Origin: Minisyncoccota bacterium
Lineage (GTDB): Bacteria; Patescibacteriota; Minisyncoccia; UBA6257; 2-01-FULL-56-20
Assembly (NCBI GenBank): GCA_035509435.1
Contig: DATJLR010000002.1
Coordinates: forward strand, 69,774-133,773
Direction: 5' to 3'
DNA: 64,000 nt
A model generated the notes under the pieces. The model was not told where the DNA came from. It saw nothing but the letters and a program-made list of their open reading frames with translations, and made no database searches. Each line of letters opens with the position of its first letter. The first letter of the stretch is position 1. Of the stretch, positions 2,656 to 48,735 are shown in pieces. Made by a program: the position numbers and the translations under genes.

Positions 2656-4167
2656 ATGACCGTTCACTCCCGCCGCGGGCAGTCCATCACGGAGGTGCTG
2701 ATCTCGATCGCGATCGCCGGGATATTCGCCGCCGGCGCCGCGTCGATCATCGCGCCCGCCCTGCGCGAGAACAGCCAGGCGGGAAAGATCCAGCAGGCCG
2801 CGACGGAGGCGCAATCCCTGCTTGCCGGCGTGCGCGTATGGTCGGAAGCGAACTGGAGCAACGTCCTTTCCCTTGCGACCGGCACGGCGAGCGACTATTA
2901 CCTGATCACATCGTCAACGCCGTACACGGCGACGTCGGGAGTCGAGTCGATCGTCATCGGCACGACGACATACACGCGATATTTTTATCTGACCGATGCG
3001 TATCGCGCGAGCGGCGGCGCGATCTCCAACGCGTCCTCGGGGAACACCTATGATCCCTCCACCAAGCAGATCACCGTGGTGTATGGATGGGCGGGCTCGG
3101 CGACGGGCACAATGAGCGCGTATCTCACCCGGAACGGCGATGTCACGTTCCTTCAGACGGACTGGTCCGGCGGCCCCAATCCGGGCAGGGTGGCGACCAC
3201 CGTCGGCAGCCAGTTTTCCTCGTCCTCCAATATCGACTACACGGACATATCGGGTTCGATATCCATCCCGCTGAACTCCATAACGGACCAATACGGCACG
3301 TGGGTGCTCGTTCCCGGCAACAGCACCTTCGGGACCCCGAACTTTTGGGTCATGAAATATGCGGCGGTCTGCACCAATGGCAGCGGAAGCGTCGTGAATA
3401 CGCCCTCTGATGACGGGGGCTACGATGATGCTTCCAAGAATTGCACATCCGCAAATAGCTTGCAGATCGGCTCGTTTCCCGGCGGCGACCCCATCGTGGA
3501 TGTCTCTCATACGAGCGCCTCTTCTTACTGCCAGTCCATCGGCGCGCATCTTCTCACAAACGACGAGTATATGACGATCGTGACGAACGCCGCAAACCAG
3601 GGTTCCAACTGGACAGGGGGCAGTGTCGGGTCCGGCGGCATATATATCGGCAACGCGAACAATCCGGAGCCGTACCCCGCTGGTTCAAGCGATGCGAACG
3701 GCTATGCGGGTGAATCGGACCTGACCGTCACATATACGAACGACGAGCGGCGCACGTTCACGCTTTCGAACGGGAGCATTGTCTGGGATATGTCCGGCAA
3801 TGTTTGGGAGGATGTTTCCCGGAGCGTGAACGACTCGGGTGACGCCACGACCACCATGTCCATGCCTTCCTGTTCCGATAACTATAACGGGTGGGAAGAT
3901 TGCCAGTTCGGCAATTCGACGATCCCTTATATCACGTCGTATACCTCGGACCTCACGCAGCTTATGCTCGCGCCGCCGAACTCTTCGTGGAATTCGTCCC
4001 AGAATGTCGGCGTGGTCCAAACGTACGGCTCGGGCGGGAATCAGGGGGCCGCCGGCTTTGCCCGTGGCGGCAACGCTGACGACGGCTCGAGCGCCGGCGC
4101 ATTCGCGTTCTTTCCGGTGGATCCGAGCGGCTCCGGCAATTGGCTGGGCTTTCGCTGCTCGCGCTGA
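2656..4167 (+). CDS. Pilin-like protein with C-terminal formylglycine-generating-enzyme (FGE/SUMF1)-like domain
   Basis: N-terminus RRGQSITEVLISIAIAGIFAAGA is pilin-like with Glu at +5. C-terminal region has DMSGNVWEDV and terminal GFRCSR, hallmarks of the FGE-sulfatase/DUF323 fold. Confidence 0.65.
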   Translation: MTVHSRRGQSITEVLISIAIAGIFAAGAASIIAPALRENSQAGKIQQAATEAQSLLAGVRVWSEANWSNVLSLATGTASDYYLITSSTPYTATSGVESIVIGTTTYTRYFYLTDAYRASGGAISNASSGNTYDPSTKQITVVYGWAGSATGTMSAYLTRNGDVTFLQTDWSGGPNPGRVATTVGSQFSSSSNIDYTDISGSISIPLNSITDQYGTWVLVPGNSTFGTPNFWVMKYAAVCTNGSGSVVNTPSDDGGYDDASKNCTSANSLQIGSFPGGDPIVDVSHTSASSYCQSIGAHLLTNDEYMTIVTNAANQGSNWTGGSVGSGGIYIGNANNPEPYPAGSSDANGYAGESDLTVTYTNDERRTFTLSNGSIVWDMSGNVWEDVSRSVNDSGDATTTMSMPSCSDNYNGWEDCQFGNSTIPYITSYTSDLTQLMLAPPNSSWNSSQNVGVVQTYGSGGNQGAAGFARGGNADDGSSAGAFAFFPVDPSGSGNWLGFRCSR

Positions 4168-4179
4168 TACTATAAGGAT

Positions 4180-5124
4180 ATGAGAACGACCATCGCCGGC
4201 AGCAAGAGCAAGCGCTGTTCCATCCGCTCCGGGCTGTTCTTTGTTTGCGCCGCGATCGGCGGCATCTTTTTCGCGTTCGCGTTTTCCCCGTCGCGCGCGC
4301 TTGCCGCGACGAATATAAATGCGACCTCGTCGCAGCACTCTGCGTGGAACGACGAGATCGGCTGGATAGATTTTTACAGTACCGGCAATGTGACGGTGGG
4401 ATCAAGCCAGCTCACGGGCTATGCAAGCTCATCGGCCGGCCCGATATCCCTGGATTGCGCCACAAGCCCGTCGGGGAACATCTGCTCGTCCAGCGAATAT
4501 GACGTCTCGAACGATGGATCGGGAGATCTTTCGGGGTGGGCGTGGAACGACGAGATCGGCTGGATATCGTTCTATTGGGGGAACGCGTCCGCAAATTCCG
4601 CGGCCACAACGACCGCGCTTTGCCAGTCCTACGGTTCATATTGCGGCGTTTCCATAAACGGCTCAGGCGTATTCCAGGGGTGGGCGTGGAATGACGACGT
4701 GGGATGGATCGATTTCAATTGCGCCAACGTTTCCGAGAGTATCTGTTCAACATCCAACTTCGAAGTCGCGACATCGTGGGCCCCGCAAGCGGCGACAGGG
4801 ACCCTCGATTCTCAGACGTTTGACACCGGCGTCGCTGCCGGCGCGCAGCTGAATTCGGTCACGTGGTACGGCTCTTTGCCTGCGGGCACATCCGTGGCAT
4901 TTCAGATCGCCGTGAGCAACAGCTCGAGCGGTCCGTGGAACTTCCAGGGCACCGACGGCACTTCGGCAACGACCTATCCCACCCTTGAGGGGGTTCCCAC
5001 GCCGCTGACCAATTATTCATCCCTCAGCGGACGCTATTTCCGATACCGCATCATCCTCACTTCCGATCTCGCGCAGACGGTTTCGCCGCGTGTTGACTCG
5101 GTGATCGTCAATTGGAGCCCATAA
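4180..5124 (+). CDS. Secreted protein with three Trp-rich tandem repeats (consensus W(A)WND(E/D)(I/V)GWI(D/S)F)
   Basis: N-terminal signal/TM segment. Repeats SAWNDEIGWIDFY, GWAWNDEIGWISFYW and GWAWNDDVGWIDFNC, each flanked by Cys pairs. Confidence 0.5.
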   Translation: MRTTIAGSKSKRCSIRSGLFFVCAAIGGIFFAFAFSPSRALAATNINATSSQHSAWNDEIGWIDFYSTGNVTVGSSQLTGYASSSAGPISLDCATSPSGNICSSSEYDVSNDGSGDLSGWAWNDEIGWISFYWGNASANSAATTTALCQSYGSYCGVSINGSGVFQGWAWNDDVGWIDFNCANVSESICSTSNFEVATSWAPQAATGTLDSQTFDTGVAAGAQLNSVTWYGSLPAGTSVAFQIAVSNSSSGPWNFQGTDGTSATTYPTLEGVPTPLTNYSSLSGRYFRYRIILTSDLAQTVSPRVDSVIVNWSP

Positions 5125-20961: not shown

Positions 20962-22154
20962 CAATGAAGCGCAACTTGATCATTTCCGGAGCCATTGCCC
21001 TTGCGCTTGGGGCGGCGCCTTTTTTTGCCTCCGCGGCGACGGCCGTTAAGACCCCCTTTTATTATGGCGCGTGGATCCCGTATTGGACGGGCCAGGCCGG
21101 CGAACAGCAGGTTTCCGTCAATCTGGACTCCCTGAACGAAGTGAGCCCGTTCTCATATGAGATCGTGGATGGAGGGACCATTCAGGATGACCTCGGCATC
21201 AATAAAGGATTGTGGACCGCGTGGATCCAGGCGGTACAGTCGGGTGGTGTCAAAGTGATCCCGACGATCGCGTGGTTCGACACGAACGGCATTTACAACC
21301 TGCTTTCAAATGGAACCGCCCGGCGCGCGGAAGAGACAAGCATCGCCGCGCTCGCGAAGACGGACAGTTTTGATGGCATCGACATCGACTTTGAGGCAAT
21401 GTCCACCTCTACGCGTCCCTACTACTCGCTGTTTATAGAAGGACTTTCCGATCGGCTCCATGCAGAAGGCAAGGTGCTCACGTGTTCCGTGGTGCCGCGT
21501 GATTTCCCAAGCTCGGTCTATGTCGCCGTTCCGCAGGATCTCACGTACGCCGAATCATATCCGGTGCTCAATCAGTATTGCGACGAGGTGCGCCTGGAGG
21601 CATATGACCAGGGGACGACAGACCGCGTGCTTGAAGCGCAAAAAGGACAGGACGGCACGCTCTATGCGCCGGTCGCGGATCCCGATTGGACGGCGAAGAT
21701 CATCCAGTACGCACTGCAGTATATCAATCCCAAGAAGATCATGCTTGGCATACCCACCTACGGCTACGAGTACGAGGTCTCATGGAGCAACGATGTAACG
21801 ACATATCAGGAGGTCCGTTCGTGGGATTTCTTCGGCGCGATGGACCGCGCGGATTCGCTCGGCATTGTTCCGGTACGCGACAACGCGGGTGAGCTCAGTT
21901 TCACATTCACGTCGAGTACCTACATCCAGGAACCCCTTGACCTCACATCATACGTTTCATCCACGGAGCCGGCGGTGCTCGCCACGCATGACCCGAACGC
22001 ATCCACCACGTTCTTTGTGACGTTCCCCGACGCCACATCCGAAATGAACATGGTGAACCTCGCAAAGCAATACGGCCTCCGTGGCGTGATGTTCTTCAAG
22101 GCGGACGGCGATATTGACCCTGCGATTTGGGGAGATATCAGCGCGGCGCAGTAG
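20958..22154 (+). CDS. Secreted glycoside hydrolase family 18 (chitinase-like)
   Basis: Signal peptide, then the FDGIDIDFE catalytic motif (DxxDxDxE). 398 aa. Confidence 0.85.
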   Translation: MTMKRNLIISGAIALALGAAPFFASAATAVKTPFYYGAWIPYWTGQAGEQQVSVNLDSLNEVSPFSYEIVDGGTIQDDLGINKGLWTAWIQAVQSGGVKVIPTIAWFDTNGIYNLLSNGTARRAEETSIAALAKTDSFDGIDIDFEAMSTSTRPYYSLFIEGLSDRLHAEGKVLTCSVVPRDFPSSVYVAVPQDLTYAESYPVLNQYCDEVRLEAYDQGTTDRVLEAQKGQDGTLYAPVADPDWTAKIIQYALQYINPKKIMLGIPTYGYEYEVSWSNDVTTYQEVRSWDFFGAMDRADSLGIVPVRDNAGELSFTFTSSTYIQEPLDLTSYVSSTEPAVLATHDPNASTTFFVTFPDATSEMNMVNLAKQYGLRGVMFFKADGDIDPAIWGDISAAQ

Positions 22155-22155
22155 G

Positions 22156-22776
22156 CTATTTGCCTTCGGCTTCCTTCTTCATAGTCTCTGAATAGATCAA
22201 TATGCGGTCGCGACCGCGATCGATCGTGCCATCCTCTCGCGCCTTATCCTCTTTTGCGACATACAGGGCCGTGTCGGCGCGCTCGATGGCGTCTTTGACG
22301 CTCTCTCCGGGATTGAGCTGCGTAAGCCCTCCACTGAAAGTGATCGGGATCTTTTCGCCGTCCAATTCAGTGGTGAACCCCAGCCTGACCTTCTCTTTGA
22401 ACCGCTCCACATCGGCGTTCTTTAAGAACACCACGATCTCCTCGCCGCCGATGCGCGCGATGAAGTCGCCTTCGCGGAACTGGCTTTTGAGATATTCTCC
22501 GGCTTCGCGCAAAATGCGATCGCCGCCCGAGTGGCCTTCCTGGAAGGCATCGTTCACGATCTTAAAGTTATCGATATCAAGCAGAAGTACGGCATCCGGG
22601 CTTTCCTCGCGCTTTTCGTTGTATGCATTGCGGTTCGCGATGCCCATCAGGGAATCGGTATATGCGATGTTCCTCAGGCGTTCATTTTCTTCCCGCAAGG
22701 CCGTGTTTTCCGTTTTTAGCCGCACTACCTCCTGCTGCTCGGGGGTCGTCGGCGATTCCAATACTTCCGGTGCCAT
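22156..22776 (-). CDS. GGDEF diguanylate cyclase with N-terminal coiled-coil
   Basis: RIGGEEIVVF (GGEEF active site) with upstream RxxD-like context. 206 aa. Confidence 0.85.
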   Translation of the reverse strand: MAPEVLESPTTPEQQEVVRLKTENTALREENERLRNIAYTDSLMGIANRNAYNEKREESPDAVLLLDIDNFKIVNDAFQEGHSGGDRILREAGEYLKSQFREGDFIARIGGEEIVVFLKNADVERFKEKVRLGFTTELDGEKIPITFSGGLTQLNPGESVKDAIERADTALYVAKEDKAREDGTIDRGRDRILIYSETMKKEAEGK

Positions 22777-22891
22777 GGATTTATTATGGTTTATTTATGA
22801 AAATTATATGCCGTGTGGCAAAAAAATAACAGCGCCCGGGTGCGTGGTTCGGGCGCTGGGGTGGACGGTTGTCCTCCATTGTTCAAATCGG

Positions 22892-23221
22892 TCAGGAATG
22901 TTTTATTCTCGCAAGGCGCCGCTCCTCAAAGCTCTCCATGCGGCCTTCTGCTTTCTCGCATGACGCCGAGAGCCGCTCCATGAGCTCGCGTACTTTCCGG
23001 AACCGTTCTCCGGGATGTGCCGTCTGGGGATAGTGCTTGTGCAGGGCTTCAAGGTATCCGTATGCTTCGGTGATTTTCGCTATGGCATCCACGATCCGTT
23101 CTTCCGGATCCGTTTCGGCCGGGCCCATATCAAAAAAAAGTTTTTTGATGTCCTGTGTCATCGTTTTGAGCCGGCTCCGGCAGAAAACGGTGGCTGCTTC
23201 CGTGCGGCTTTCGGTTATCAT
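22892..23221 (-). CDS. Hypothetical protein
   Basis: 109-aa ORF in an operon-like position between the GGDEF gene and the large fusion gene. No recognisable motif. Confidence 0.4.
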   Translation of the reverse strand: MITESRTEAATVFCRSRLKTMTQDIKKLFFDMGPAETDPEERIVDAIAKITEAYGYLEALHKHYPQTAHPGERFRKVRELMERLSASCEKAEGRMESFEERRLARIKHS

Positions 23222-23258
23222 ATCCCTCCCTCCTCTCCGTCCTTTGAAAGGACTGATT

Positions 23259-25232
23259 TCAGGGTAGCGGATTTTGCGCCGGCGCGCCAGACGGCCTGGA
23301 GGCGCTGTAATACTTAAGGAAAAGAAGGGCTTCGTCGCGATCTTTAACGGCCCGCGCCGCGCCGGTTTCGAGCGTTTTGAGTTCGATTTCCAGGAAGGGC
23401 GCGTTATGGAAAAGGTGAGAGCGTTCCCGTGAGTGCCTTGCGGCGACGATATGGGATCGTATCACGTCCACGGTTTCATCAATGACCTCTTCCCAGAATA
23501 TTTTTTTAAGGGCGGGGATTATCTCCGTGATGGATGCGTTCGTTGCGCGTTCCGGGCATTGCTTCCGAAATCGTCGCGCTACGAGCGTGCCAATGCTTGT
23601 CATGCGGCCTCGCAGCAGATCATCGATCCAGTCATGTGCATCATCATGAAGTTGCCGCGCGATAAGGTAATGATGGAACATCAGTTCGACTCCCCGACAC
23701 TCCTCCGACCCCGGGTCATATCCCAAAAACAGCAGTTCGGCGAGCGGGCCCATTGCGTGCCCGATGCTGCGGTCAGCGAGACGTTCATATGCGTTGAACA
23801 AAGGCAGATTTTTAGGGAGTGTTCCTTGGCCGCCTGCCGGGATGCGGCAATGGTTTTGCTCCCACGCATTCGCATCATCAACGCGATCCATTATCCTTTT
23901 AAAGAGTTCACGCGCGCCTTGTATGCGTCCGTCGAGCGTGGCATAGATGTCCCCAACGGACCGCAAAAAGAAGTTTGCGTATGGAATAAGGGAGGCGTCG
24001 CTCTCGTCGTCCATGACATCGTCATAAATTGAATATGCGGCCCAGCCATAGAGATTTCCGAGCGAAAGTGATGCGATGATGTCTGACGGAATGGCTGCGG
24101 CATCTTTCCCTAGTGCCGCTTGGAATTCGTATGCCAATAAAGCGATCTTTCCGTCGGATATTTTTCCGATCTCGGCGAGTGCGGCGGAACGTAGTTCTGT
24201 TCCCGCGGTGGCACAGGCAGCCTTCAGTGCGGGTATCGTTGCGGGTATTTCCTTCGGAACGGCCGCGTTTTCCGCTTTCGCGCACAGCGCAAGCGCTTCA
24301 GCGCAGAATGCTGCGGTAAGCGCTGACGATCCCGCGTATGACCGCTTACCGTCACGCGTCGGATCGATGCAGAATGCATATGGTCGGAATCCTTCCCACG
24401 CCAGTTTTTTTATGAGGGAATCGATCATCCAGGAGGGGATCGCGTCCGCGCGACCGAGATTTACGAGCGATGAGATCGCCATTGAGCATTCAAGGGGCGT
24501 GGCCTTTTTGCCGTCTTCGCCCATGAGCCGCTCCTCAATGACGCGTGCCAGTTGTTGTCGCGCGTCAATGTTTTTATTCGGAAGGGCGTTATAGAAACGC
24601 GAGAAGAAGTAGCCTACATGGAAGATTCCCGGATAGTACGGTGATGTGATGCGGTTTTCTCTTACTGCGGCATCAACGAAGCGGGTCAGGTTCGGAAGGT
24701 GGACGCCGACCGATGAAAGGAAATAGCCGATCGTGCTGTTTACCACCGGATCGATGTCACGCCATGCCAAGGGCGCGCTGGCGTTCACGATCCACGTCCG
24801 ATAGGGGCCGCCCTCCTGTGCTTCGAGCGCGATGAGGAGTTTTGCAAGGGCAGCGAACGCTTCGCCGCCGATATACGAGGGGATATATCGTACCAGCGCC
24901 GCCAGGGCGGTGAACGTGTCGTCAAGATCGTCCGGATAAGGAAGCGTCCTGTTCTCGTCCGTATCACGCGCCCAATAGTTGAACGACCATGCATCGTTCT
25001 TTTGTGAAAGAAGAAAGCGCGCCGCCGCGTCTTGCGTCGGGTCGCGGCTCTTCGCGGAGCTGCGAAGGCAGTTCAGGATGGTTGCGGTAAAAAATGTCGT
25101 ATGACGGGAGATGCCGTCAGAAAGGTCCTCGTGATCGAAACCGGAAACATTTTTGAAGCTTCCATCAAGGGATTGGCATTTTTGGATGTGCCGGAGCGCG
25201 TTGTAGGTTATGGTGGCGTGCGTCGGATTCAT
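23259..25232 (-). CDS. Two-domain terpenoid-enzyme-like protein: N-terminal class II terpene cyclase/prenyltransferase alpha-alpha toroid (DxDDT, QW-like motifs) + C-terminal class I isoprenoid synthase-like domain (DDxxD motifs)
   Basis: N-terminal QSLDGSF and QKNDAWSFNYW QW-like repeats and PYPDDLDDTFTALAAL (DxDDTA-like). C-terminal YSIYDDVMDDESD and LHDDAHDWIDD Asp-rich motifs ~130 aa apart. 657 aa. The start overlaps the HK stop by 68 nt and may be a downstream alternative start. Confidence 0.55.
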   Translation of the reverse strand: MNPTHATITYNALRHIQKCQSLDGSFKNVSGFDHEDLSDGISRHTTFFTATILNCLRSSAKSRDPTQDAAARFLLSQKNDAWSFNYWARDTDENRTLPYPDDLDDTFTALAALVRYIPSYIGGEAFAALAKLLIALEAQEGGPYRTWIVNASAPLAWRDIDPVVNSTIGYFLSSVGVHLPNLTRFVDAAVRENRITSPYYPGIFHVGYFFSRFYNALPNKNIDARQQLARVIEERLMGEDGKKATPLECSMAISSLVNLGRADAIPSWMIDSLIKKLAWEGFRPYAFCIDPTRDGKRSYAGSSALTAAFCAEALALCAKAENAAVPKEIPATIPALKAACATAGTELRSAALAEIGKISDGKIALLAYEFQAALGKDAAAIPSDIIASLSLGNLYGWAAYSIYDDVMDDESDASLIPYANFFLRSVGDIYATLDGRIQGARELFKRIMDRVDDANAWEQNHCRIPAGGQGTLPKNLPLFNAYERLADRSIGHAMGPLAELLFLGYDPGSEECRGVELMFHHYLIARQLHDDAHDWIDDLLRGRMTSIGTLVARRFRKQCPERATNASITEIIPALKKIFWEEVIDETVDVIRSHIVAARHSRERSHLFHNAPFLEIELKTLETGAARAVKDRDEALLFLKYYSASRPSGAPAQNPLP

Positions 25233-26553
25233 GGCGTATGGGAAATGTGACGGTAAATGTGGAGCCGGCGGCCGGCGTACTCGCGACGCTTATCGTGCCG
25301 CCAAGCTCCTCTTTTATTATTTTTTGCACCGTTGCGAGGCCGATGCCGATCCCTTTGTGCGCCTCTTTTGTGGTGAAGAACGGCTCAAATATTTTATCGG
25401 CGACGGCAGGCGTCATGCCGCAACCGTTATCTTCTACGCGGAGGGCGGCCATTCCGTCGTGTTCTTCCATACTGATATTGACGTGCCTCAGGCGAACATC
25501 TTTTTGGGGGAGTTGTTCGTACGACTCGATGGCATTGAAAAGAAGATTGATGATGACCTCTTGGAATTTATACGGCACACCGAAATAGCGGATATCCATC
25601 TTTGGAATATGGGAGAGCCCGATGCGCACGCCCTCCTTGTTTGCTTTGTGGTTGACCAGCTGGACCGCATGGCCGATCGCCTCTTTGAGGGAAAAGGATT
25701 CCCTGGCGTCGGCGTTTCCGATCTGCTTGCGTACCGCCTGCATGAATCCTTCGATCTGCCGTGCGGTATTTCTGGCGCTTGCGAGCGAGGGATCTTCTTC
25801 GTCGTCATTCCGGAGCGAGAGCGCGTTCAGAAGATTTAAGAGGTCGTGGAAGAGACCCGATGACAGCTGTCCGAGTTCTGCAAGGCGATTCAACTGTTGC
25901 ATTTTCTCAAGCTGGGTCCGGCGCAGTTCTTCGGTGCGTTCCCCGACCTTCACCTCCAGCAGGTCCCGTTCCTCCCGGAGCGCCTTCTCGGAATCGTGCG
26001 CACGGCGGAGCGATCGATGAACCTCGCGTTCGTACAGCCACGCAACGGTCATGATAAGAAGGTACAGCACCGAGAAAACGATCGCGTCATCGGCGGTGGG
26101 GCGAGGGACCTGTGTGGCAACGATGCCATGGATCTGGGCATACCAGAGGGGGATGATGAATGCCGCAACGGCGCCGGTGGTGGCGAACCCGAACTGGGTC
26201 CCGCGGAGGATGGTCGCCATGACGATGATGAGCGCATAGGCGATCAGGACCACCTGCATGCCGACGCCGTATCGATATGCGGCATAACTGTTGCTTACGA
26301 AGTATGCCCCGACAAACAGGAATGAGACCACCCGCGGAGATCCGCGGCGCGAAAGGACATACAGAAGGATGAAGAAGGCGGGCAGTACCGAGAATGCGGC
26401 GAACGGGACATCGTGATATGCGGCACCGTCCTGTACGGAATGGAAAAGCACGAATGCGTCGAGGGTCGAGAGCATAAGCACCGATCCGACCAAAAGGACG
26501 TTCAGGATGTTCTTTCTTCTTGGAAGGTCTTCATCCATCGTTCTTAGTCCCAC
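25165..26553 (-). CDS. Sensor histidine kinase (multi-TM sensor, HisKA + HATPase_c)
   Basis: ~6 N-terminal TM helices, H-box LSSGLFHDLLNLLNAL, N-box LLFNAIESY, G boxes EDNGCGM and GIGIGL. 462 aa. Confidence 0.85.
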   Translation of the reverse strand: MGLRTMDEDLPRRKNILNVLLVGSVLMLSTLDAFVLFHSVQDGAAYHDVPFAAFSVLPAFFILLYVLSRRGSPRVVSFLFVGAYFVSNSYAAYRYGVGMQVVLIAYALIIVMATILRGTQFGFATTGAVAAFIIPLWYAQIHGIVATQVPRPTADDAIVFSVLYLLIMTVAWLYEREVHRSLRRAHDSEKALREERDLLEVKVGERTEELRRTQLEKMQQLNRLAELGQLSSGLFHDLLNLLNALSLRNDDEEDPSLASARNTARQIEGFMQAVRKQIGNADARESFSLKEAIGHAVQLVNHKANKEGVRIGLSHIPKMDIRYFGVPYKFQEVIINLLFNAIESYEQLPQKDVRLRHVNISMEEHDGMAALRVEDNGCGMTPAVADKIFEPFFTTKEAHKGIGIGLATVQKIIKEELGGTISVASTPAAGSTFTVTFPIRHESDARHHNLQRAPAHPKMPIP

Positions 26554-26711
26554 GATTCGAATTCGTTCTGCGCCGCTGCAAGCGCTTCTGTTCCTTCCGG
26601 CACGCGTGCCAATGGATCAGTGAGCACTTTTTCCAGTAATGTATTCATGCTATGTAACGTGGATTTTTCGACCTTTCCCACGCATTATACTCAGGGAGGA
26701 TTAAATATATC

Positions 26712-27407
26712 TTAAGTTGAACGCGGTCCGGAAACATATGCTTTTCCGACGATGAATCCGCGGCCAGGGACCGTATGGATAAAGGCATCCTTGTCACGCC
26801 GGTCGATCTTTCGCCGGAGGTTCATGACATGCATATCGATGCTTTTGGAGAACTGGTCCGCGCTGTCGTCCCAGACATGCTCCAGGATCATGCCGCGCGA
26901 GACCACTGTGCCCGCGTTGCGCATAAGATATTCAAGCAGCATGAACTCCTTCGGCGTGAGGCGCGTCGTTCTTTCGCGGAAGGTGAACGAATATGTTTTT
27001 GCATCAAGCGAAAGGTCTTCGACCACGAGCGCCTTCGCGTGGATGTTCTGCGGACGGCGCAAAAGCGCCTTCACGCGCGCGGCAAGCTCGCTCCATACAT
27101 ATGGCTTGGTGAGATAATCGTCCGCGCCGCAATTGAGCAGCTGTACTTTGTCCTCGATCTCTGCCGCAGCGCTCAATATGAGTATCGGGGCCGCCATGTT
27201 GTATTCCCGAAGGGCCGAACAGATCTCGTATCCGTCCTTTCCCGGCAGAGTTTTATCGAGGAGAATGAGGTCGTAATCGTTCGTGCGTGCTTTATAAAAT
27301 CCTTTCTCGCCGTCGTGCTCCACGTCCACGGCGTAGCATTCCGCCTCGAGCTTGCGCTTCAAGGTCGCGGCAGTTTCTTCCTGGTCTTCGACCACGAGGA
27401 TCCTCAT
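26712..27407 (-). CDS. OmpR/PhoB-family response regulator
   Basis: Receiver domain (MRILVVEDQ, phospho-acceptor D in LILLDKTLPGKDG) and winged-helix trans_reg_C (LTPKEFMLLEYLMRNAGTVVSR). 231 aa. Confidence 0.9.
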   Translation of the reverse strand: MRILVVEDQEETAATLKRKLEAECYAVDVEHDGEKGFYKARTNDYDLILLDKTLPGKDGYEICSALREYNMAAPILILSAAAEIEDKVQLLNCGADDYLTKPYVWSELAARVKALLRRPQNIHAKALVVEDLSLDAKTYSFTFRERTTRLTPKEFMLLEYLMRNAGTVVSRGMILEHVWDDSADQFSKSIDMHVMNLRRKIDRRDKDAFIHTVPGRGFIVGKAYVSGPRST

Positions 27408-27759
27408 GGGGATTGGGTTTCAATAAGTATACACTAAGTCGGCCGAGCTTGTGGACCTGCCGGGACGTGCGCCCGGTTCTCCGTTTGGCAAAATCGGTAT
27501 CCTACTACATAGACGACAGGCCCGCGATCCACAAGCATAGGCACCCTACCATGATGATCATTAAAACTATTTTAAACGCCTGCAAAACATAAATGACCAC
27601 GATAAAGTGGTCATTTATGCGCCAAACGGATATGAACCCGCCATCTTGCGGATCACCGATTTCATAGATAATAATAAGCTTCTTTTGAGCAATGTCAAAA
27701 GATTTTTAATGATTTTTTAATGTTCTCGCGGGGGTGGGGGAGCGTGGTACAATCAAGGA

Positions 27760-28614
27760 ATGACCGGCGGCGTATTCGATGCACAGGGCCCCGTGGCGCT
27801 CGACGAACGGAATTTGATCATTCTGGCCGTCATCCTTATGCTGCTTGTGGCGATCCCGATGCTCGCGCTGCTCTACACCTTTGCGTGGAAGTACCGCGCG
27901 GGGCGCAAGGATCCGGCAAAATATGAGCCGGAGCACGCGGGCAGCGCGCCGAAACAACTGCTCTGGTGGATCATCCCGGCGATCATCATCGCGACGCTCG
28001 GCGTGATCGACTGGCAGAGCACGCATGCACTTGACCCGTACAAGCCGATCGTGTCCAGCAACCCGCCGCTTACGATCGAGGTGGTGGCGCTTGAGTGGAA
28101 GTGGCTCTTTATCTATCCGCAGCAGGGGATCGCGACGGTCAACTATATTCAGTTTCCCGCGGACACGCCGGTGCATTTTATGCTGACGGCGGACGCGCCG
28201 ATGAGCTCGTTCTGGATCCCGCAGCTTGGCAGCCAGATTTACGCGATGGCCGCGATGCAGACCCAGCTGTACCTTGAGGCGAGCACGACCGGCGAGTACA
28301 CCGGCAAGGACACGGAGATCAACGGCGCGGGATACGCGGGAATGACCTTCACGGCAAAGTCCACCTCGCTTGACGACTTCAACGCCTGGGTGGCATCGGT
28401 CAAAAATTCTTCCAATACGCTTACGCTAGCCGATTACAATAGCGACCTGATGCCGTCGAGCACGGACAATCCCGTGGTGTTCTATTCCTCCGTCGATCCG
28501 AATTTGTATGATACGATATTGGTAAAGTACATGATCCCGCCGCCGAGCACTTCTACGTCGGCTTCGGGGTCGTCACCGTCAGCGCCGGACGCCATGCCGG
28601 GCATGTCAATGTAA
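27760..28614 (+). CDS. cyoA: Cytochrome bo3-type quinol oxidase subunit II (CyoA-like; CuA ligands absent)
   Basis: Two TM helices, then a cupredoxin domain (FWIPQLG) lacking the CxxxC CuA cysteines, as in quinol oxidases. Confidence 0.85.
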   Translation: MTGGVFDAQGPVALDERNLIILAVILMLLVAIPMLALLYTFAWKYRAGRKDPAKYEPEHAGSAPKQLLWWIIPAIIIATLGVIDWQSTHALDPYKPIVSSNPPLTIEVVALEWKWLFIYPQQGIATVNYIQFPADTPVHFMLTADAPMSSFWIPQLGSQIYAMAAMQTQLYLEASTTGEYTGKDTEINGAGYAGMTFTAKSTSLDDFNAWVASVKNSSNTLTLADYNSDLMPSSTDNPVVFYSSVDPNLYDTILVKYMIPPPSTSTSASGSSPSAPDAMPGMSM

Positions 28615-28621
28615 ACGAATC

Positions 28622-30628
28622 ATGGAACACTTCCTTCTCGGAGACCTCACGTGGAGCGCGCTGCCGCATCAATGGTTCACCATCGGGGGCACCGCGGCGA
28701 TCTTCGGAGGGCTTATCATCATTGCGGCAATTCTCACGTACTTCAAGCGCTGGAAATGGCTGTGGAAAGAATGGCTGACGTCCACCGACCCGAAGAAGAT
28801 CGGCGTCATGTACATTGTGATGGCGTCGCTCATGCTCTTCCGCGGCGGCCTCGATGCGGCGATGATCTGGCTGCAGCAGTCGCTCGGATCCAGCAACGGT
28901 CCCGGATTTCTCGGCGTCTCGCACGGCTATCTTGATTCCAGTCATTTCCAGCAGATATTCACGGCGCACGGGGATATCATGGTGTTCTTCGTGACGATGG
29001 GATTCTTTTTCGGCCTCATGAACCTGATCGTGCCGCTGCAGATCGGCGCGCGCGACCTTGCGTTCCCGTTCCTCAATTCGCTCGGATTCTGGCTCTACGT
29101 GGCGGGCGCCGTCTTTATAAACATGTTCTTCGTGATCGGCGGTGAATTTGCCGCGAGCGGCTGGCTCTCGCTGCCGCCGCTATCCGAATTGCAATATAGC
29201 CCGGGCACCGGCGTGGATTATTGGGTATGGTCGCTGCAGATCTCCGGCCTCGGATCCCTGCTCGGCGGCATCAATTTCATCGTCACCATTTTGAAGATGC
29301 GCGTGAAGGGGATGAAGCTCATGATGATGCCGCTGTTCACCTGGACGTCGCTCTGCAGCATGTTCCTCGTGATCGCGGCTTTCCCGGTGCTCACCGCGAC
29401 GACACTGCTCCTCTGGCTTGACCGTTTCATGGGCATGCACTTCTTTACGACGACCGCCGGCGGCAACCCGATGCTGTATGTGAACCTGATCTGGATGTGG
29501 GGGCATCCGGAGGTGTACATCCTCGTGATCCCGGCGTTCGGCATCTTTTCGGAGATCGTTGCCACGTTTTCCGGCAAGAAGATCTTCGGCTATGTTTCCA
29601 TGGTGTGTGCCGCGATCTGCATCACCCTACTTTCGTTCCTTGTCTGGTTGCATCACTTCTTTACCATGGGCGCCGGCGCCGACGTTGACGCGTTTTTCGG
29701 CATCATGACGGGCATCATCGCGATCCCGACGGCCGTTCAGATATTCAACTGGATCGCCACGATGTTCCGCGGGCGGATACGGTTCACAACGCCGATGATG
29801 TATTTCATCGGGTTTGTGAGCCTCTTCACGTTCGGCGGCATGGCGGGCGTTCTGCTCTCCATCCCGGGCGCGGATTTTGAGCTGCACAATTCGCTCTTCC
29901 TCGTGGCGCACTTCCATACGATGATCGTGAGCGGCGCGCTCTTCGGCATCTTCGCGGGGCTCACGTACTGGTTCCCCAAAGTGATGGGATTCAGGCTGAA
30001 CGAGCGCCTGGGTCGGCGCGCGTTCTGGCTGTGGCTCGTCGGATTCCTCGTCTCGTTCACGCCGCTCTATATATTGGGTTTCCTCGGCGCGACGCGGCGG
30101 CTTGACACCTATGACGCCTCGACCGGCTGGCAGCCGTTGTTCATCGTCGCGGGGGTCGGCGTATGCATCATCGCCGCCGGCGCGCTCACGCAGGTGTGGC
30201 AGGTGATCGTGAGCATTCGCGAGCGCAAGGAGAACTTGGATACCACGGGCGATCCGTGGGACGGCCGCACGCTTGAGTGGGCAACGCATTCGCCGGTGCC
30301 ATACTACGATTTTGCGCAAACGCCGGAAGCGGATTCCCGCGACGCATTCTGGGAGATGAAGAAGCGGGGTACAGTGCGTGGCCGCGACGTTCCGGTAAAG
30401 TACGAGGACATCACGCTCTCAAAGAACACCGGCATGGCGATCTACCTTTCGGGATTCTTCTTCCTGTTCTCGTTCGGCGCGGTATGGCACATCATCTGGC
30501 TCATGGTGCTCGGGCTTGTTGGCTGCGTCGCGTGCGTCATCATCCGTTCGTTCAACGACGATACTGAATACACGATTCCCGCGGCCGAAGTGGAACGGAT
30601 GGAAAAACTCGCATGGAAAAAGCAATGA
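28622..30628 (+). CDS. cyoB: Heme-copper oxidase subunit I (quinol oxidase CyoB)
   Basis: 668 aa, ~14 TM helices, conserved His ligands (WGHPEVYIL..., HFHTMIVSG, WAHHMF-type motifs). Confidence 0.95.
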   Translation: MEHFLLGDLTWSALPHQWFTIGGTAAIFGGLIIIAAILTYFKRWKWLWKEWLTSTDPKKIGVMYIVMASLMLFRGGLDAAMIWLQQSLGSSNGPGFLGVSHGYLDSSHFQQIFTAHGDIMVFFVTMGFFFGLMNLIVPLQIGARDLAFPFLNSLGFWLYVAGAVFINMFFVIGGEFAASGWLSLPPLSELQYSPGTGVDYWVWSLQISGLGSLLGGINFIVTILKMRVKGMKLMMMPLFTWTSLCSMFLVIAAFPVLTATTLLLWLDRFMGMHFFTTTAGGNPMLYVNLIWMWGHPEVYILVIPAFGIFSEIVATFSGKKIFGYVSMVCAAICITLLSFLVWLHHFFTMGAGADVDAFFGIMTGIIAIPTAVQIFNWIATMFRGRIRFTTPMMYFIGFVSLFTFGGMAGVLLSIPGADFELHNSLFLVAHFHTMIVSGALFGIFAGLTYWFPKVMGFRLNERLGRRAFWLWLVGFLVSFTPLYILGFLGATRRLDTYDASTGWQPLFIVAGVGVCIIAAGALTQVWQVIVSIRERKENLDTTGDPWDGRTLEWATHSPVPYYDFAQTPEADSRDAFWEMKKRGTVRGRDVPVKYEDITLSKNTGMAIYLSGFFFLFSFGAVWHIIWLMVLGLVGCVACVIIRSFNDDTEYTIPAAEVERMEKLAWKKQ

Positions 30629-30632
30629 AAAA

Positions 30633-31223
30633 ATGAAAACAGAAACGGAAATGAAAAATGAAGCCTCGACCGCCGACCGCCATGCGTTCGGGTTCTGGGT
30701 CTATCTGATGACCGACCTTGTGATATTCGGCGTGCTCTTCGCGGTATATTTCGTGCTGCAGCCTGCCACGTTCGGAGCGCCTTCAGCGCACGATCTTTTC
30801 AGCCTGCCGACCGCGCTTGCGAACACGCTCGTGCTGCTCACCTCGAGCTTCACCTGCGGGCTTGCTACGCTCGCGGCGCGGCGGGGGAAGGTGAACCAGG
30901 TGATCGCATGGCTCGCGGTCACGTTCGTGCTCGGCGCGACGTTCCTTACGATCGAGCTTACCGAGTTCTCGCACTTCATTTCCCTTGGAGCGGACTGGAC
31001 GAAGAGCGCGTTCCTGTCTTCGTTCTTTACGCTCGTCGGGACGCACGGCCTGCATATCTCCGTGGGGCTCCTGTGGATCGTCGTCGCGATCGTCCAGCTG
31101 AAAGTGCGCGGCCTCACGCCGCCCATCATTTCCAAACTGGACCGCTTCACGCTGTTCTGGCATTTTTTGGACATCGTCTGGATATTCATCTTTACGACCG
31201 TTTACCTGATGGGAATAATGTAA
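30633..31223 (+). CDS. cyoC: Quinol oxidase subunit III (CyoC)
   Basis: 5-TM protein, 196 aa from the in-frame ATG at 30633 just after the cyoB stop. The track ORF starts further upstream inside cyoB. Confidence 0.88.
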   Translation: MKTETEMKNEASTADRHAFGFWVYLMTDLVIFGVLFAVYFVLQPATFGAPSAHDLFSLPTALANTLVLLTSSFTCGLATLAARRGKVNQVIAWLAVTFVLGATFLTIELTEFSHFISLGADWTKSAFLSSFFTLVGTHGLHISVGLLWIVVAIVQLKVRGLTPPIISKLDRFTLFWHFLDIVWIFIFTTVYLMGIM

Positions 31224-31227
31224 AACC

Positions 31228-31581
31228 ATGAAAGCTTCGCTCAAGTCATATGTCACCGGATTTATCCTTTCTGTCATGCTCACGCTCGCGGCAGCGTGGC
31301 TCGTCTTCGCGCACGTGACGAGCGGCATCTTCTCGGGCGATGTCCTTATCGGCGCCATCCTTGTCCTCGCGGTCGCGCAGCTTTTCGTCCAACTTATATT
31401 CTTCATGCACATCGCGGAAGAGACGGGGCCGCGCTTCCGGCTCGTGGTGCTCTTTTCCACGGTCGGGATCATCTTCATCGTGATCGCCGGGTCCATTTGG
31501 ATCATGAACCATCTGAACTATAATATGATGGCATCGCCGGCAGAGATGAACGCATATATCCAGAGCCAGGACGGATTCTGA
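31228..31581 (+). CDS. cyoD: Quinol oxidase subunit IV (CyoD)
   Basis: 117-aa 3-TM protein directly after cyoC. Typical CyoD size and hydropathy. Confidence 0.8.
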   Translation: MKASLKSYVTGFILSVMLTLAAAWLVFAHVTSGIFSGDVLIGAILVLAVAQLFVQLIFFMHIAEETGPRFRLVVLFSTVGIIFIVIAGSIWIMNHLNYNMMASPAEMNAYIQSQDGF

Positions 31582-31601
31582 ACGATGACGATGCTTTCGC
31601 A

Positions 31602-32513
31602 ATGAAATACTATTACGAGCTTACCAAGTCAGGACTGGTGTTCGGGAACCTCATTACGGTGATCGCGGGATTTTTGCTCGGCGCGCGGACCGTTGCGATC
31701 GTGAACGGCATCCTGCCGGTGGACCCGTGGCTTTTGTTCGCAACATGCGCGGGCATTGCCTGCGTGATGGCGTCCGGATGCGTGTTCAATAATTACATCG
31801 ACCGCGACATTGACGGGAAAATGGAGCGCACGCGGCACCGCGCCCTCGTCGCGCGGCATATCTCCGGCCGCGCGGCAATCGTCTTCGCCGCCGCGCTCGG
31901 CATCGCCGGCTTTTTCATCCTCGCCATATATACCAACACGCTTGCGACGCTCGCCGCCGCGACGGGATTTATTTTCTACGTTTTCGCGTACAGCCTGTGG
32001 GGAAAGCGGCGCACGGTGTATGGCACGTTCATCGGCGCGATCGCGGGCGCCACGCCGCCGGTCGTGGGATACGCGGCGGCGAGCGGCCGGGTCGACATGG
32101 CGGCGGCGATCCTGTTCGTCATCATGCTCGCGTGGCAGATGCCGCATTTTTTCGCCATCGCCATCCGGCGCAGGGATGATTACGCCGCCGCCCATATTCC
32201 GGTAATGCCCGTGAGTCGCGGCATGCGGCGCACGAAATCGAGCATGGCCATCTATATAATAGAGTTCACGCTTGCCGCCTGCCTTCTCTTCATGTTCGGC
32301 TATGCGGGCATCCCATACCTTGCGATCGCCGCCGCGCTCGGCATTGTCTGGCTCGGATTCGCTGTGCGCGGATTTTCGATACCGGATGCCGCAACGGAGC
32401 CGTCGCATCCGCATGCCGCCGCGAATAAAAAATGGGCGACGCAGATGTTCGCCCTTTCGCTCATCATCATGGTCGCCCTTTTCGGCGCGATCGCGGTGAC
32501 CGCTGTTATATAA
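31602..32513 (+). CDS. cyoE: Protoheme IX farnesyltransferase (heme O synthase)
   Basis: UbiA-family motifs (NNYIDRDIDGKMERTRHRAL; second Asp-rich region YAAAHIP), 9 TM. 303 aa. Confidence 0.9.
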   Translation: MKYYYELTKSGLVFGNLITVIAGFLLGARTVAIVNGILPVDPWLLFATCAGIACVMASGCVFNNYIDRDIDGKMERTRHRALVARHISGRAAIVFAAALGIAGFFILAIYTNTLATLAAATGFIFYVFAYSLWGKRRTVYGTFIGAIAGATPPVVGYAAASGRVDMAAAILFVIMLAWQMPHFFAIAIRRRDDYAAAHIPVMPVSRGMRRTKSSMAIYIIEFTLAACLLFMFGYAGIPYLAIAAALGIVWLGFAVRGFSIPDAATEPSHPHAAANKKWATQMFALSLIIMVALFGAIAVTAVI

Positions 32514-32744: not shown

Positions 32745-34031
32745 TCAGCCGATCACCACTTTTGCGATGGCGAAAATGCTCCTCAAAGAATAGTTCGCGG
32801 TAAAGCTCACGTTGTTGCCGTTCGTGATGTACGGATCCTTCATGACATAATTGCCGTTGCTGCCGCTCACCAGAACGACGAAGTGCGTGCCTCCGTAGGC
32901 ATTGATGCCCACGATCACCGGATTGCCGGTGGCGAGCGTCGCGTCGATGGCGGCGGTCTTGCGCGTGACGGTCACGCCGTCGACGTTGAAGGTCGTGAGG
33001 AGATACGCAGGATAATATGCGGCAAAGTCGTTCGGGTTGGAATTGATCGTTTCCGGCGTCACGTCCTTGTACCCGTAGTGCGTGAGCACCATCGCCATCG
33101 CGGTCACAAGGCAGCCGTCGGCAGCCATCGTATATTTTGTGCCATCAAGCGGCAGACTGCCCCATGCGCTGTCGCGCTGATTATAATAGCAGCCCCATGA
33201 ATCACAGACCGTCTGATTGCCGAGGATCTTCGATCCGCCCGCGTTCGCCGCGAACGCGGAAAAGCTCGCGAGCTGTGCCTGCGCGGAAGCAAGGAGTTTT
33301 TCGTACGTCGCCTCCTGCGAGTTCGTTTCCACAAGAAGCTGGTTCTTTGATTGCACGGTTTGCGTGAGCGTCTGCTGCTGCGCGGTCAGCGTCTGCTGCT
33401 GCGCGGTCAGCGTGCTTTGTTTCTGCTGCGAGGCGTTTTGCGATGACGCAAGGGCGTCCTTTTCCTGCTTGAGCGTTTCCATCGCGCTTTGGATGCCGTC
33501 CTGGATCTGGAGGGTCTGATTCACGTCTTCCCATGCCTTTTCAAGGCCGCCGGAAGAGAGCATTTCCACGAGAAGGGGCTGGGCATCCTGTTTTTGAAGG
33601 CTTTCGAGATACGCGCCGAGCGCCGTCTGGTCGGTTTCGATCGTCTGCTGAGTATCCGTGATCTCGCCGCCCAGCTGCTGGATCTCTATCTGGGTGGCGC
33701 TGATCTCGGTTTGGGTAAGGTTGATCTGCGCCTGGACCTTGTTCTTTTGGAGATCGAGGGAGTTGATCGCTGCCTGAAGCGTCTTTTTATTGGCTCCGAC
33801 CTGCTGGAGCTCGGCTTGATATTGCGCAATTTGGGCATTAAGGGCGGCCATCTGCTCCTGATTGGCGTCAAGCTGGGCCTGCAGGGTACTGCTGCTCGTG
33901 GTCGTGGACGTTGCAGCGGTGGCTTGTGCATAGGCAGCCGGAAGCCGTATAAGGGTGATTCCGGTAGCCACGGCGACGATGGATATTGCTATCGAGAGTA
34001 TGATGAGCGTTTTTTTCATAAATGGGAGCAC
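32745..34031 (-). CDS. Secreted coiled-coil protein with C-terminal peptidase C39-like (papain-fold) domain
   Basis: Signal peptide, ~250 aa Gln/Thr/Leu-rich coiled coil with heptad TLTAQQQ repeats, C-terminal Cys...His domain (CDSWGCYY...GTHFVVLVSG). Confidence 0.6.
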   Translation of the reverse strand: MLPFMKKTLIILSIAISIVAVATGITLIRLPAAYAQATAATSTTTSSSTLQAQLDANQEQMAALNAQIAQYQAELQQVGANKKTLQAAINSLDLQKNKVQAQINLTQTEISATQIEIQQLGGEITDTQQTIETDQTALGAYLESLQKQDAQPLLVEMLSSGGLEKAWEDVNQTLQIQDGIQSAMETLKQEKDALASSQNASQQKQSTLTAQQQTLTAQQQTLTQTVQSKNQLLVETNSQEATYEKLLASAQAQLASFSAFAANAGGSKILGNQTVCDSWGCYYNQRDSAWGSLPLDGTKYTMAADGCLVTAMAMVLTHYGYKDVTPETINSNPNDFAAYYPAYLLTTFNVDGVTVTRKTAAIDATLATGNPVIVGINAYGGTHFVVLVSGSNGNYVMKDPYITNGNNVSFTANYSLRSIFAIAKVVIG

Positions 34032-48722: not shown

Positions 48723-48735
48723 GTTTTTAATTTCA

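Follow-up and report, generated by a model that had tools for sequence, protein, structure and literature searches.

In the ComQXPA system of Bacillus, four roles are encoded together, namely a DDxxD-containing enzyme of trans-isoprenyl pyrophosphate synthase (trans-IPPS) fold, a short tryptophan (Trp) peptide, a polytopic histidine kinase and a response regulator. The modified Trp of ComX variants lies near the C-terminus of the peptide, and the range for ComX and StheX is two to four residues from the end. These four roles recur in the locus described here, which lies in a 64,000-nucleotide (nt) stretch of a Minisyncoccota bacterium genome (GenBank assembly GCA_035509435.1, contig DATJLR010000002.1, positions 69,774 to 133,773; this whole stretch is called the window). 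On the minus strand of the window, four genes encode an OmpR-type response regulator, a 34-residue Trp peptide, a multi-transmembrane (TM) histidine kinase and a 657-residue fusion enzyme (Table 1), and this same-strand, four-gene cassette is the conserved unit in the Candidate Phyla Radiation (CPR, or Patescibacteria). Arguing from characterised systems and from conserved motifs, we think it probable on balance that the enzyme prenylates the Trp of the peptide and cyclises the prenyl group, and that the kinase/regulator pair senses the product. We favour peptide modification because the Trp peptide, kinase, regulator and enzyme occur together and match features of the ComQ, PalQ and ChrPC systems.

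All characterised non-elongating prenyltransferases that resemble a trans-isoprenyl diphosphate synthase (trans-IDS), which are ComQ, PalQ, the P domain of ChrPC and StheQ, target the Trp of a co-encoded peptide (PMC13290415; StheQ preprint). In PalPXQ of Paenibacillus alvei and StheQ/StheX of Sphaerobacter thermophilus, as here, a trans-IDS-like enzyme gene lies beside the gene of a peptide with a C-terminal or near-C-terminal Trp. The PalQ cluster includes a histidine kinase (PMC10853753), as does the cassette, and StheX is modified at the Trp in second place from the C-terminus, which is also where the window peptide has its Trp (StheQ preprint). The differences are that PalX is an NHLP-type precursor and StheX has 69 residues, and that PalQ and StheQ are single-domain enzymes with a pseudo second aspartate-rich motif (pseudo-SARM), no cyclase domain and no regulator reported in the cluster. 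By analogy, the closest architecture is that of the ChrPC-type maturases, which we compared through a review's description (PMC13290415) of Hubrich et al., Chem 2024. ChrPC and NctPC are bifunctional prenyltransferase-cyclases, in which a Trp prenyltransferase is fused to a class II cyclase that acts on the already attached prenyl group; the P domain of ChrPC is trans-IDS-like, and the Trp of a ribosomal peptide receives a C10-C20 prenyl group that is then cyclised (PMC13290415). The enzyme of the window is likewise predicted to combine a Trp-type prenyltransferase-fold domain and a monodomain class II cyclase in one protein. It differs from ChrPC in carrying the cyclase at the N-terminus, with homology to the drimenol synthase TCβ domain, and its cassette is wired to a kinase and a regulator, has a precursor of about 34-40 residues with a leader of its own, and is found in CPR hosts.

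With ComQXPA, the cassette also shares the sole conserved feature of the peptide core, a Trp a few residues from the C-terminus. The gene order, however, is regulator, X, kinase, Q here and Q, X, P, A there, the regulator is of the OmpR type whereas ComA is of the NarL/LuxR type, and the precursor has 34-40 residues against about 55 in ComX. The enzyme has a class II cyclase domain in addition, and its second Asp-rich motif is complete; it has no significant similarity to ComQ (hhalign E 0.026) and is unmatched by PF00348, which is found in all ComQ proteins. Since regulator family, gene order and enzyme domains differ, the cassette would work like ComQXPA without being a member of that system.

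The logic of the enzyme and the logic of the circuit are both already known. New are their combination, the TCβ-type cyclase, the short leader-bearing precursor and the CPR-wide spread. Literature searches on terpene synthases, ComQXPA, quorum sensing and prenylation of ribosomally synthesised, modified peptides in CPR bacteria turned up no account of the family; a CPR quorum-sensing survey mentions no ComQ, ComX or prenylation (PMC7567580), and Patescibacteria go unmentioned in a broad phylogeny of class II cyclases. Beyond Firmicutes, ComQ-like systems are represented by one Chloroflexi species, presented as new as of August 2026 (StheQ preprint).

Table 1. Genes, domains, motifs and control elements of the cassette and its immediate surroundings (positions in the window; aa, amino acids; ORF, open reading frame)
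Feature	Position	Strand	Basis or remark
OmpR/PhoB-type response regulator, 231 aa	26712..27407	-	Pfam Response_reg and Trans_reg_C, each about E 4e-24
Precursor-like peptide, 34 aa, MNTLLEKVLTDPLARVPEGTEALAAAQNEFESWD	26544..26648	-	Conserved leader; single Trp at -2 from the C-terminus
Sensor histidine kinase, 457 aa from the likely ATG at 26538	25165..26538 (ORF to 26553)	-	Pfam HATPase_c E 5e-23
Cyclase-prenyltransferase fusion enzyme (predicted), 657 aa	23259..25232	-	No Pfam/NCBIfam family
Enzyme N-half, monodomain class II TCβ domain	24258..25232	-	Residues 1-325; Foldseek and profile
PYPDDLDDTF, class II general-acid motif (DxDDT)	24912..24941	-	Aligned with FPDDLDTT of AsDMS; invariant Asp/Thr
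Enzyme C-half, trans-IPPS fold, proposed ComQ-like prenyltransferase	23262..24245	-	Residues 330-657; model and Foldseek
First Asp-rich motif (FARM-like), IYDDVMDDESD	23997..24029	-	D404 and D408 invariant, E410 nearly so
Second Asp-rich motif with upstream Gln, RQLHDDAHDWIDD	23619..23657	-	Q527, D530 and D534 invariant; D531 and D538 nearly so
Sigma-70-like promoter TTGACA-16-TATTAT upstream of the regulator gene	27671..27698	-	Predicted; 11/12 consensus positions
Direct repeat TTAA-N7-TTAA (TTAAGATATATTTAAT), candidate regulator-binding box	26700..26715	-	Overlaps the regulator stop codon
TATAAT -10 box, putative internal promoter of the peptide, kinase and enzyme genes	26684..26689	-	GAGTATAAT invariant in 9 genomes
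5'-leader element GGGAAAGGTCGAAAAA with (A)AGGTCGA motif	26664..26679	-	Conserved upstream of the peptide
ORF of 109 aa	22892..23221	-	No Pfam/NCBIfam family; homologue in 1/80 loci (L012)
GGDEF diguanylate cyclase, 206 aa	22156..22776	-	PF00990 E 2e-25; motif REGDFIARIGGEEI

A conserved tryptophan peptide between regulator and kinase

The preliminary description of this DNA listed five minus-strand ORFs (response regulator, histidine kinase, terpene-synthase-like fusion, a small ORF and a GGDEF cyclase). All five are present, with the motifs and the gene overlap given there, and Pfam identifies the regulator, the kinase and the GGDEF protein. Its interpretation is partly supported, and the conserved feature is larger than it described. 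A 34-residue ORF between the regulator and kinase genes had been overlooked and is central to the locus. In the three homologue contexts first examined, a called gene of 34-40 codons stood between these two genes each time. Homologues were then sampled from 80 species-level loci across Patescibacteria (L numbers below), where all ORFs of at least 20 codons were scanned with an iterated profile hidden Markov model (HMM). Peptide homologues were found in 75 of the 80 loci, giving 72 distinct sequences of about 37 residues, with a range of about 34-40. Upstream synteny could be counted in the 71 loci with enough upstream DNA, and the peptide gene stands immediately upstream of the kinase gene in 70 of them as well as in the window. 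The exception, L060, retains the homologous coding region (…KKLLKKVFINKVIRD…LVWS), but no ATG, GTG or TTG opens it. In 76 of the 80 loci the ORF directly upstream of the enzyme gene is a kinase ORF, the other four being cut at a contig end. A regulator ORF was detected in 66 loci, in most of which it directly precedes the peptide gene and shares its strand. The stop codon of the window peptide is 5 nt before the kinase ATG.

The peptides share the pattern M-[KN]-x-[LIV]-[LIVM]-x-K-[IVL]-L-T-D-K-x-A-R, followed by a variable middle and a Trp with one to six residues after it. Leu, Arg and Trp are invariant in all 72 sequences. Exactly one Trp is present in 68 of them, its distance from the C-terminus is always one to six residues, and a Pro precedes it in 45. 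All six codons are used for the invariant Leu, and likewise for the invariant Arg, across genomes of 34-57% GC, which places the constraint on the translated peptide and not on a nucleotide element. The middle is hydrophobic in many lineages, where it follows a basic N-terminus, and is acidic and hydrophilic in the clade of the window; as the hydrophobic stretch is absent from this clade, membrane anchoring is not the conserved property.

A class II cyclase domain fused to a prenyltransferase fold

Pfam and NCBIfam scans of the 657-residue enzyme gave no family and only a sub-threshold TED_complement match. With the single sequence, phmmer found no match in the Protein Data Bank (PDB); the family profile alone found the drimenol synthase AsDMS. 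The AlphaFold2 model, built with the family alignment, is that of a confident two-domain enzyme (pLDDT 87, pTM 0.79). A word-indexed search returned 298 homologues, the best 120 of which are mostly 620-690 residues long with some shorter, and an exhaustive HMM search returned 1389 clusters at 50% identity (E <= 1e-30), almost all of the 150 listed aligning over their full length. With two exact peptide patterns, the enzyme family was found in at least 266 species-representative genomes. Few members carry a source name; among the matches listed, nearly all of these few go by “hypothetical protein”, and one has the name “class 1 isoprenoid biosynthesis enzyme”. The sole publicly recorded product 100% identical to the protein of the window (P0001) has 421 residues and starts at Met237, omitting the N-terminal 236 residues with the DxDDT motif.

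Residue conservation was counted in 32 enzyme homologues that are 37-54% identical to the window protein. D102, D104, D105, T106, D404, D408, Q527, D530 and D534 are invariant among them, and because they are invariant at this level of identity and placed in confidently modelled helices, the motifs are not chance. The preliminary description had noticed the same three motifs, which stand at residues 98-107 (PYPDDLDDTF), 402-412 (IYDDVMDDESD) and 526-538 (RQLHDDAHDWIDD), and had put the Asp-rich pair about 130 residues apart, where the spacing is about 126. It had also advised a look at the conservation of the magnesium-binding Asp residues, and D404, D408, D530 and D534 of the Asp-rich motifs are invariant. 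A missing fold, or disorder in the Asp-rich segments, would have told against it; the predicted structure has both an α/α barrel and an isoprenoid-synthase-type fold, and the motifs sit in well-modelled helices.

These residues bear on the suggestion that the protein is a repurposed, non-catalytic scaffold, in which a pair of terpenoid-binding domains serves as a kinase accessory and cytoplasmic lipid sensor feeding the two-component system. Translational coupling of the enzyme gene to the kinase gene would suit such a role: as noted earlier, the first 68 nt of the enzyme gene are shared with the end of the kinase gene (25165..25232), and the overlap is about 65-68 nt in the window and L001. 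The lack of a conserved exporter or peptidase would suit it too. All expected catalytic residues are, however, invariant or nearly so across a very diverse family of 1389 clusters, and sensor-only relics usually lose such residues. The scaffold explanation conflicts with this invariance, and we regard it as very improbable.

The N-half (residues 1 to about 325) is modelled as a single (α/α)6 barrel. Foldseek aligns it with AsDMS (9m7f/9mhs; E 6e-9, about 327 columns) and also with a small squalene-hopene cyclase (SHC, 8pak) and SHC 1sqc, and the family profile, searched against PDB sequences, matches AsDMS at E 1.4e-12 (residues 46-314 against AsDMS 270-523). PYPDDLDDT is in register with FPDDLDTT of AsDMS, whose D333 is the residue changed in the D333N structures, and further aligned blocks are YYP, PLE and YxGSxxLTxAFxxEAL. 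On the basis of profile and model, the N-half is a class II terpene cyclase β domain homologous to AsDMS TCβ, for which cyclisation activity is predicted. The class II α/α toroid with a DxDDT motif proposed in the preliminary description is therefore borne out by these matches and by the conserved acid motif. The QW-like repeats that accompanied it reduce to a single conserved QxxDGxF near the N-terminus, and Pfam matches no repeat. Crystallography and mutagenesis showed that AsDMS TCβ alone cyclises farnesyl diphosphate (FPP) in a protonation-initiated, class II reaction, and that it works on free FPP with the diphosphate retained (PMC12365925). Since the stand-alone TCβ is active, a single barrel is no obstacle to class II catalysis. 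The earlier comparison with plant and fungal diterpene synthases does not hold for the architecture, as there is one barrel only (β, about 325 residues, with no γ domain) and the α domain matches trans-IPPS enzymes.

The acid motifs of the two cyclases (DDLDDT here, DDLDTT in AsDMS) align, and it is in their partner domains that the enzymes differ, with a trans-IPPS fold here and a HAD phosphatase in AsDMS. The substrate here is probably peptide-linked. The CPR family also has a conserved insertion, EGGPYRTW, which is absent from AsDMS. This segment (residues 140-147; 24792..24815, minus strand) is almost invariant in the family and lies in a region of low model confidence (pLDDT 39-66 over residues 138-160). 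It could be a mobile lid over the class II site, comparable to the capping loop of MstE.

Modelled alone with AlphaFold2, the C-half reaches a pLDDT of 90.6. Its top 50 Foldseek matches are all trans-IPPS enzymes or the indole prenyltransferase Ord1, with template modelling (TM) scores of 0.5-0.7; FPP synthase and geranylgeranyl diphosphate (GGPP) synthase are the best, and the Ord1 structures 9v4h/9v4i are among the best, with scores up to 0.71. Class I terpene cyclases are absent from these 50. The model indicates that the fold is that of the ComQ/PalQ/Ord1 indole prenyltransferases and not that of class I cyclases. What stands of the class I likeness seen earlier is an all-α isoprenoid fold of class I type and two conserved Asp-rich motifs, the closest structures being trans-IPPS enzymes and Ord1.

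Ord1 and XiaM share with the C-half an all-α fold, a first Asp-rich motif (FARM) and a Q-x-x-D-D arrangement implicated in indole activation. The spacing of Q527-x-x-D530-D531 equals that of Q216, D219 and D220 of Ord1, and canonical IPPS also carry FQxxDD, so this feature is non-discriminating. Q216 and D219 of Ord1 are required for indole prenylation (PMC12510300). Ord1 differs in farnesylating free indole or tryptophan in indolosesquiterpene pathways, in having DDxxA as its second motif, and in having no associated peptide or kinase. At the sequence level, hhalign aligned the C-half with canonical IPPS from related loci (E 0.008) and with 12 ComQ sequences (E 0.026, probability about 2% (1.9%), not significant). 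Both alignments are statistically weak, and in both, under relaxed settings, the two Asp motifs were in register. The FARM aligns with LIHDDVED of IPPS and SDIMDDLED of ComQ, without an RRG following it in the enzyme, and the second motif's upstream Gln falls in register with that of ComQ. Alignment with Escherichia coli IspA was not significant.

Structural likeness to FPP and GGPP synthases raises the alternative that the C-half is a chain-elongating synthase, making FPP or GGPP from isopentenyl diphosphate (IPP) and dimethylallyl diphosphate to feed the N-half cyclase, as in fungal fusions, with a drimenyl- or copalyl-type diphosphate as product. Both Asp motifs are present in full, and A-R-Q-L-x-D-D-x-x-D is similar to A-F-Q-x-x-D-D-x-x-D, the form seen in real synthases. 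PF00348, however, is undetected in the enzyme even at E 0.1, whereas ComQ and true IPPS match it strongly (about 1e-55 for real IPPS in related loci), and a profile alignment to 14 canonical IPPS showed no conserved counterpart in the family of GKxxR and the post-FARM RRG, which bind IPP or diphosphate. A canonical polyprenyl synthase gene (PF00348, E 1e-54 to 1e-59; LLIHDDxxDxSxxRRG) is also present at the cassette in 14 of the 80 loci (L016, L023, L025, L026, L036, L041, L048, L053, L056, L061, L067, L069, L070 and L074), where an elongating C-half would make it redundant. This gene abuts the enzyme gene, often with an overlap of 1-4 nt, and in L023 and L041 lies between the regulator and peptide genes; its adjoining position argues for a dedicated supply of prenyl donor, and so makes the C-half unlikely to be a chain-elongating synthase. 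The alternative also leaves the peptide unexplained, and we judge it improbable.

A stronger competitor, still unlikely in our assessment, is the bifunctional class II/class I terpene synthase of the preliminary description. The N-half would make a bicyclic diphosphate from FPP or GGPP and the C-half would ionise it to a free terpenoid, which the two-component system would regulate or sense; the peptide would be unrelated to the chemistry, for instance a kinase-modulating micro-protein. Class II followed by class I is the order in which bifunctional diterpene synthases classically work. The full second motif of the C-half, with Asp at i, i+4 and i+8, would also suit a metal triad of the NSE/DTE-like kind, one family member (P0057) has a precomputed Terpene_syn_C_2 match, and the peptide resembles a short membrane anchor in many lineages. 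The homologue AsDMS takes free FPP and keeps the diphosphate (PMC12365925). Against these points stand the composition of the top 50 structural matches, with trans-IPPS enzymes and prenyltransferases throughout, and the acidic peptide middle of the window's clade, by which the hydrophobic stretch is not a conserved trait. Nor does a terpene synthase explain why 70 of 71 loci have kept alongside it a peptide with one invariant, C-terminal Trp. The unit of regulator, Trp peptide, kinase and enzyme points to peptide modification and autoinducer-like sensing, and not to a free terpenoid made under the control of a signal.

Kinase, control region and proposed circuit

By hydropathy, the first ~180 residues of the kinase contain five or six TM helices, joined by hardly any extracytoplasmic loop, and the H-box and HATPase_c follow. 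Such a low-loop layout is typical of kinases that sense membrane-embedded or lipidated ligands, for example AgrC and ComP.

Between the regulator stop and the peptide start, a distance of 70-170 nt in nine relatives of the window, three elements are invariant: TTAA-N7-TTAA, GAGTATAAT and GGGAAAGGTCGAAAAA. The TTAA-N7-TTAA repeat occupies the -35 position and is conserved in the window's clade, in all nine genomes. In 15 of 70 loci the pattern is present no more than 150 nt upstream of the peptide ATG, compared with 1.2 +/- 1.1 in random windows. Direct repeats with an 11-bp period are typical of OmpR/PhoB-family binding sites, and from this geometry we infer that the regulator binds here. The putative promoter has a perfect -10 box and no -35 match, which is consistent with dependence on an activator, and repeat and TATAAT together look like an activator-dependent internal promoter of the OmpR/PhoB type. 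A stronger promoter match, of the constitutive kind, is the sigma-70-like site upstream of the regulator gene (27671..27698). It is a consensus match only, and sites of this sort are no more numerous in the region than shuffling predicts.

The third element recurs in distant CPR lineages. In 28 of 70 loci GGTCGA precedes the peptide ATG by 26-89 nt (median 38), where controls give 2.1 +/- 1.5; loci with (A)AGGTCGA include L001, L003, L005, L010, L011, L014, L017, L047, L057, L077, L078 and L085. In minimum free energy folds, 10 of 31 loci have the motif in the loop of a hairpin, compared with 2.7 +/- 1.5 for shuffled flanks, with stem sequences that vary by lineage. RNAalifold found no consensus pairs in the GGTCGA leader, the stems standing at variable offsets, and an Rfam scan of 22000..27800 gave no match. 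The (A)AGGTCGA motif could be a leader RNA element or a protein-binding site.

Taken together with the analogous systems, these features suggest the following mechanism. The C-terminal trans-IPPS-fold domain would act in the manner of ComQ, PalQ, StheQ or ChrPC's P domain. It would use the first Asp-rich motif to bind the magnesium-diphosphate of the prenyl donor, FPP or GGPP (C15 or C20), supplied in some lineages by the co-encoded canonical polyprenyl synthase, and would alkylate the indole of the single invariant Trp near the peptide C-terminus. The N-terminal TCβ domain, with its DxDDT motif, would protonate the terminal double bond and cyclise the isoprenoid, either after transfer, as in ChrPC, or before it, in which case a drimenyl- or copalyl-type diphosphate would be moved by the C-half. 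The leader, K-[IV]-L-T-D-K-x-A-R, may be used in enzyme recognition, in processing, or in both. Once released, the lipidated peptide would be sensed within the membrane by the co-encoded low-loop kinase, which would phosphorylate the regulator; the regulator would then switch on the internal promoter (TTAA-N7-TTAA and TATAAT), giving positive feedback in the style of quorum sensing. In the clade of the window, the regulator may also drive the downstream GGDEF cyclase and so couple the circuit to cyclic di-GMP (c-di-GMP).

Several observations weigh against this mechanism. All of its chemistry is read from genes and models. The sequence homology of the C-half to ComQ is not significant by hhalign, and no Pfam or NCBIfam model matches the protein. 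The second motif is a complete DDxxD (D530, D531, D534) with D538 at i+8, and the resulting DDxxDxxxD also admits a reading as the NSE/DTE-like triad that class I cyclases have, whereas characterised Trp prenyltransferases have a degenerate, metal-free pseudo-SARM (NDxxx or DDxxA; StheQ preprint; PMC12510300) that this family lacks. The kinase and regulator are not of the ComP and ComA types, the regulator being OmpR-like. Where its middle is hydrophobic, the peptide could be a small membrane-anchored kinase modulator instead of a secreted signal. No conserved exporter or leader peptidase was found in the flanks, and ABC transporters occur in only seven loci. Among nine close relatives, the peptide core and kinase sensor domain did not show a pherotype-like divergence faster than that of the kinase core and regulator.

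Neighbouring genes and significance for the CPR

The preliminary description also counted the GGDEF gene and the 109-residue ORF as members of the cluster. As parts of the conserved unit, both were rejected, since a GGDEF gene follows the enzyme gene, besides the window, in only two close relatives among the 80 loci (L009 and L014), and the small ORF has a homologue in 1; they are clade-specific extras. The GGDEF protein has a coiled-coil N-terminus, a GGEEI variant of the active site and, five residues upstream, an intact RxxD I-site. It has no sensor domain, and its control is therefore probably transcriptional.

Other neighbours are likewise restricted to some lineages. A 428-residue protein with a C-terminal Peptidase_C39-like domain is encoded at 32745..34031 (minus strand), with a counterpart in L001 (3446..4759). 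C39 peptidases are of the type that processes bacteriocin leaders. The protein is encoded a few genes away from the cassette only in the window and L001, is not conserved elsewhere, and could process the peptide leader. Beside the cassette, on the plus strand (27760..32513), lies a cytochrome bo3-type oxidase operon (cyoABCD) followed by a UbiA-family gene. The cyoA/B/C-like ORFs were recognised from their translations, and subunit IV (COX4_pro) has a Pfam match; L001 has a UbiA gene in the same position, and a cyoA-like ORF recurs in seven loci. Genes for aerobic respiration are unusual in the CPR. The UbiA-family gene probably encodes heme O synthase, and if so, the organism has access to FPP.

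In a Doudnabacteria locus (L005/L022, on a 949-kb contig), the DNA just upstream of the peptide gene carries a phage-type integrase and a reverse transcriptase (RVT_1) that is accompanied by a bAvd accessory gene and so resembles a diversity-generating retroelement (3337..4712 and 5433..7831 in L005). The kinase of this locus is shortened (426 residues, no HATPase_c match) and the regulator displaced, and the cassette may be decaying or rearranged there. In the window itself, GC content dips to 0.43-0.48 at 46001..50000, against about 0.58 elsewhere, which suggests a horizontally acquired island.

The remark in the preliminary description about a small, streamlined genome fits a CPR organism, the window having about 57% GC and its closest relatives being “Candidatus Paceibacterota” metagenome-assembled genomes. 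Some sampled loci carry other labels (Gammaproteobacteria, Vitreimonas, Methylomirabilota). Non-CPR hosts were considered for these and rejected, because GC content in these loci is 34-47% and the enzymes share 34-100% identity with CPR-labelled ones, that of L028 being 100% identical to the enzyme of a Microgenomates locus. The labels (L024, L026, L028, L030, L032, L036, L037, L040, L044, L049-L051, L053 and L078) appear to be wrong and were treated as unreliable.

CPR bacteria are ultra-small, mostly uncultured episymbionts with minimal metabolism, and the means by which they sense each other or their hosts are little understood. A conserved cassette that would make and sense a signal, present in at least 266 species-level genomes, bears on that question. 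We put forward, as a tentative proposal that may well need revision, that much of the CPR (Paceibacteria, Saccharibacteria, Microgenomates, Doudnabacteria, CPR2 and others) has an autoinducing circuit, in which a cyclised drimane- or labdane-like terpene on a peptide Trp is made by one fusion enzyme and read by an intramembrane-sensing kinase. Should the chemistry be as proposed, Trp-prenylated pheromones would reach from Firmicutes, and recently Chloroflexi, to the CPR, and a peptide bearing a cyclised terpene would be a candidate signalling molecule. The cassette would also offer biocatalysis a compact, genetically encoded route to terpene-cyclised peptides, needing a 34-residue peptide, one enzyme, and FPP or GGPP. 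Some Saccharibacteria are now cultivable and genetically tractable. For the biology of the lineage, the circuit would mean lineage-wide communication between cells, or between symbiont and host, through a signal chemistry undescribed for any quorum-sensing molecule.

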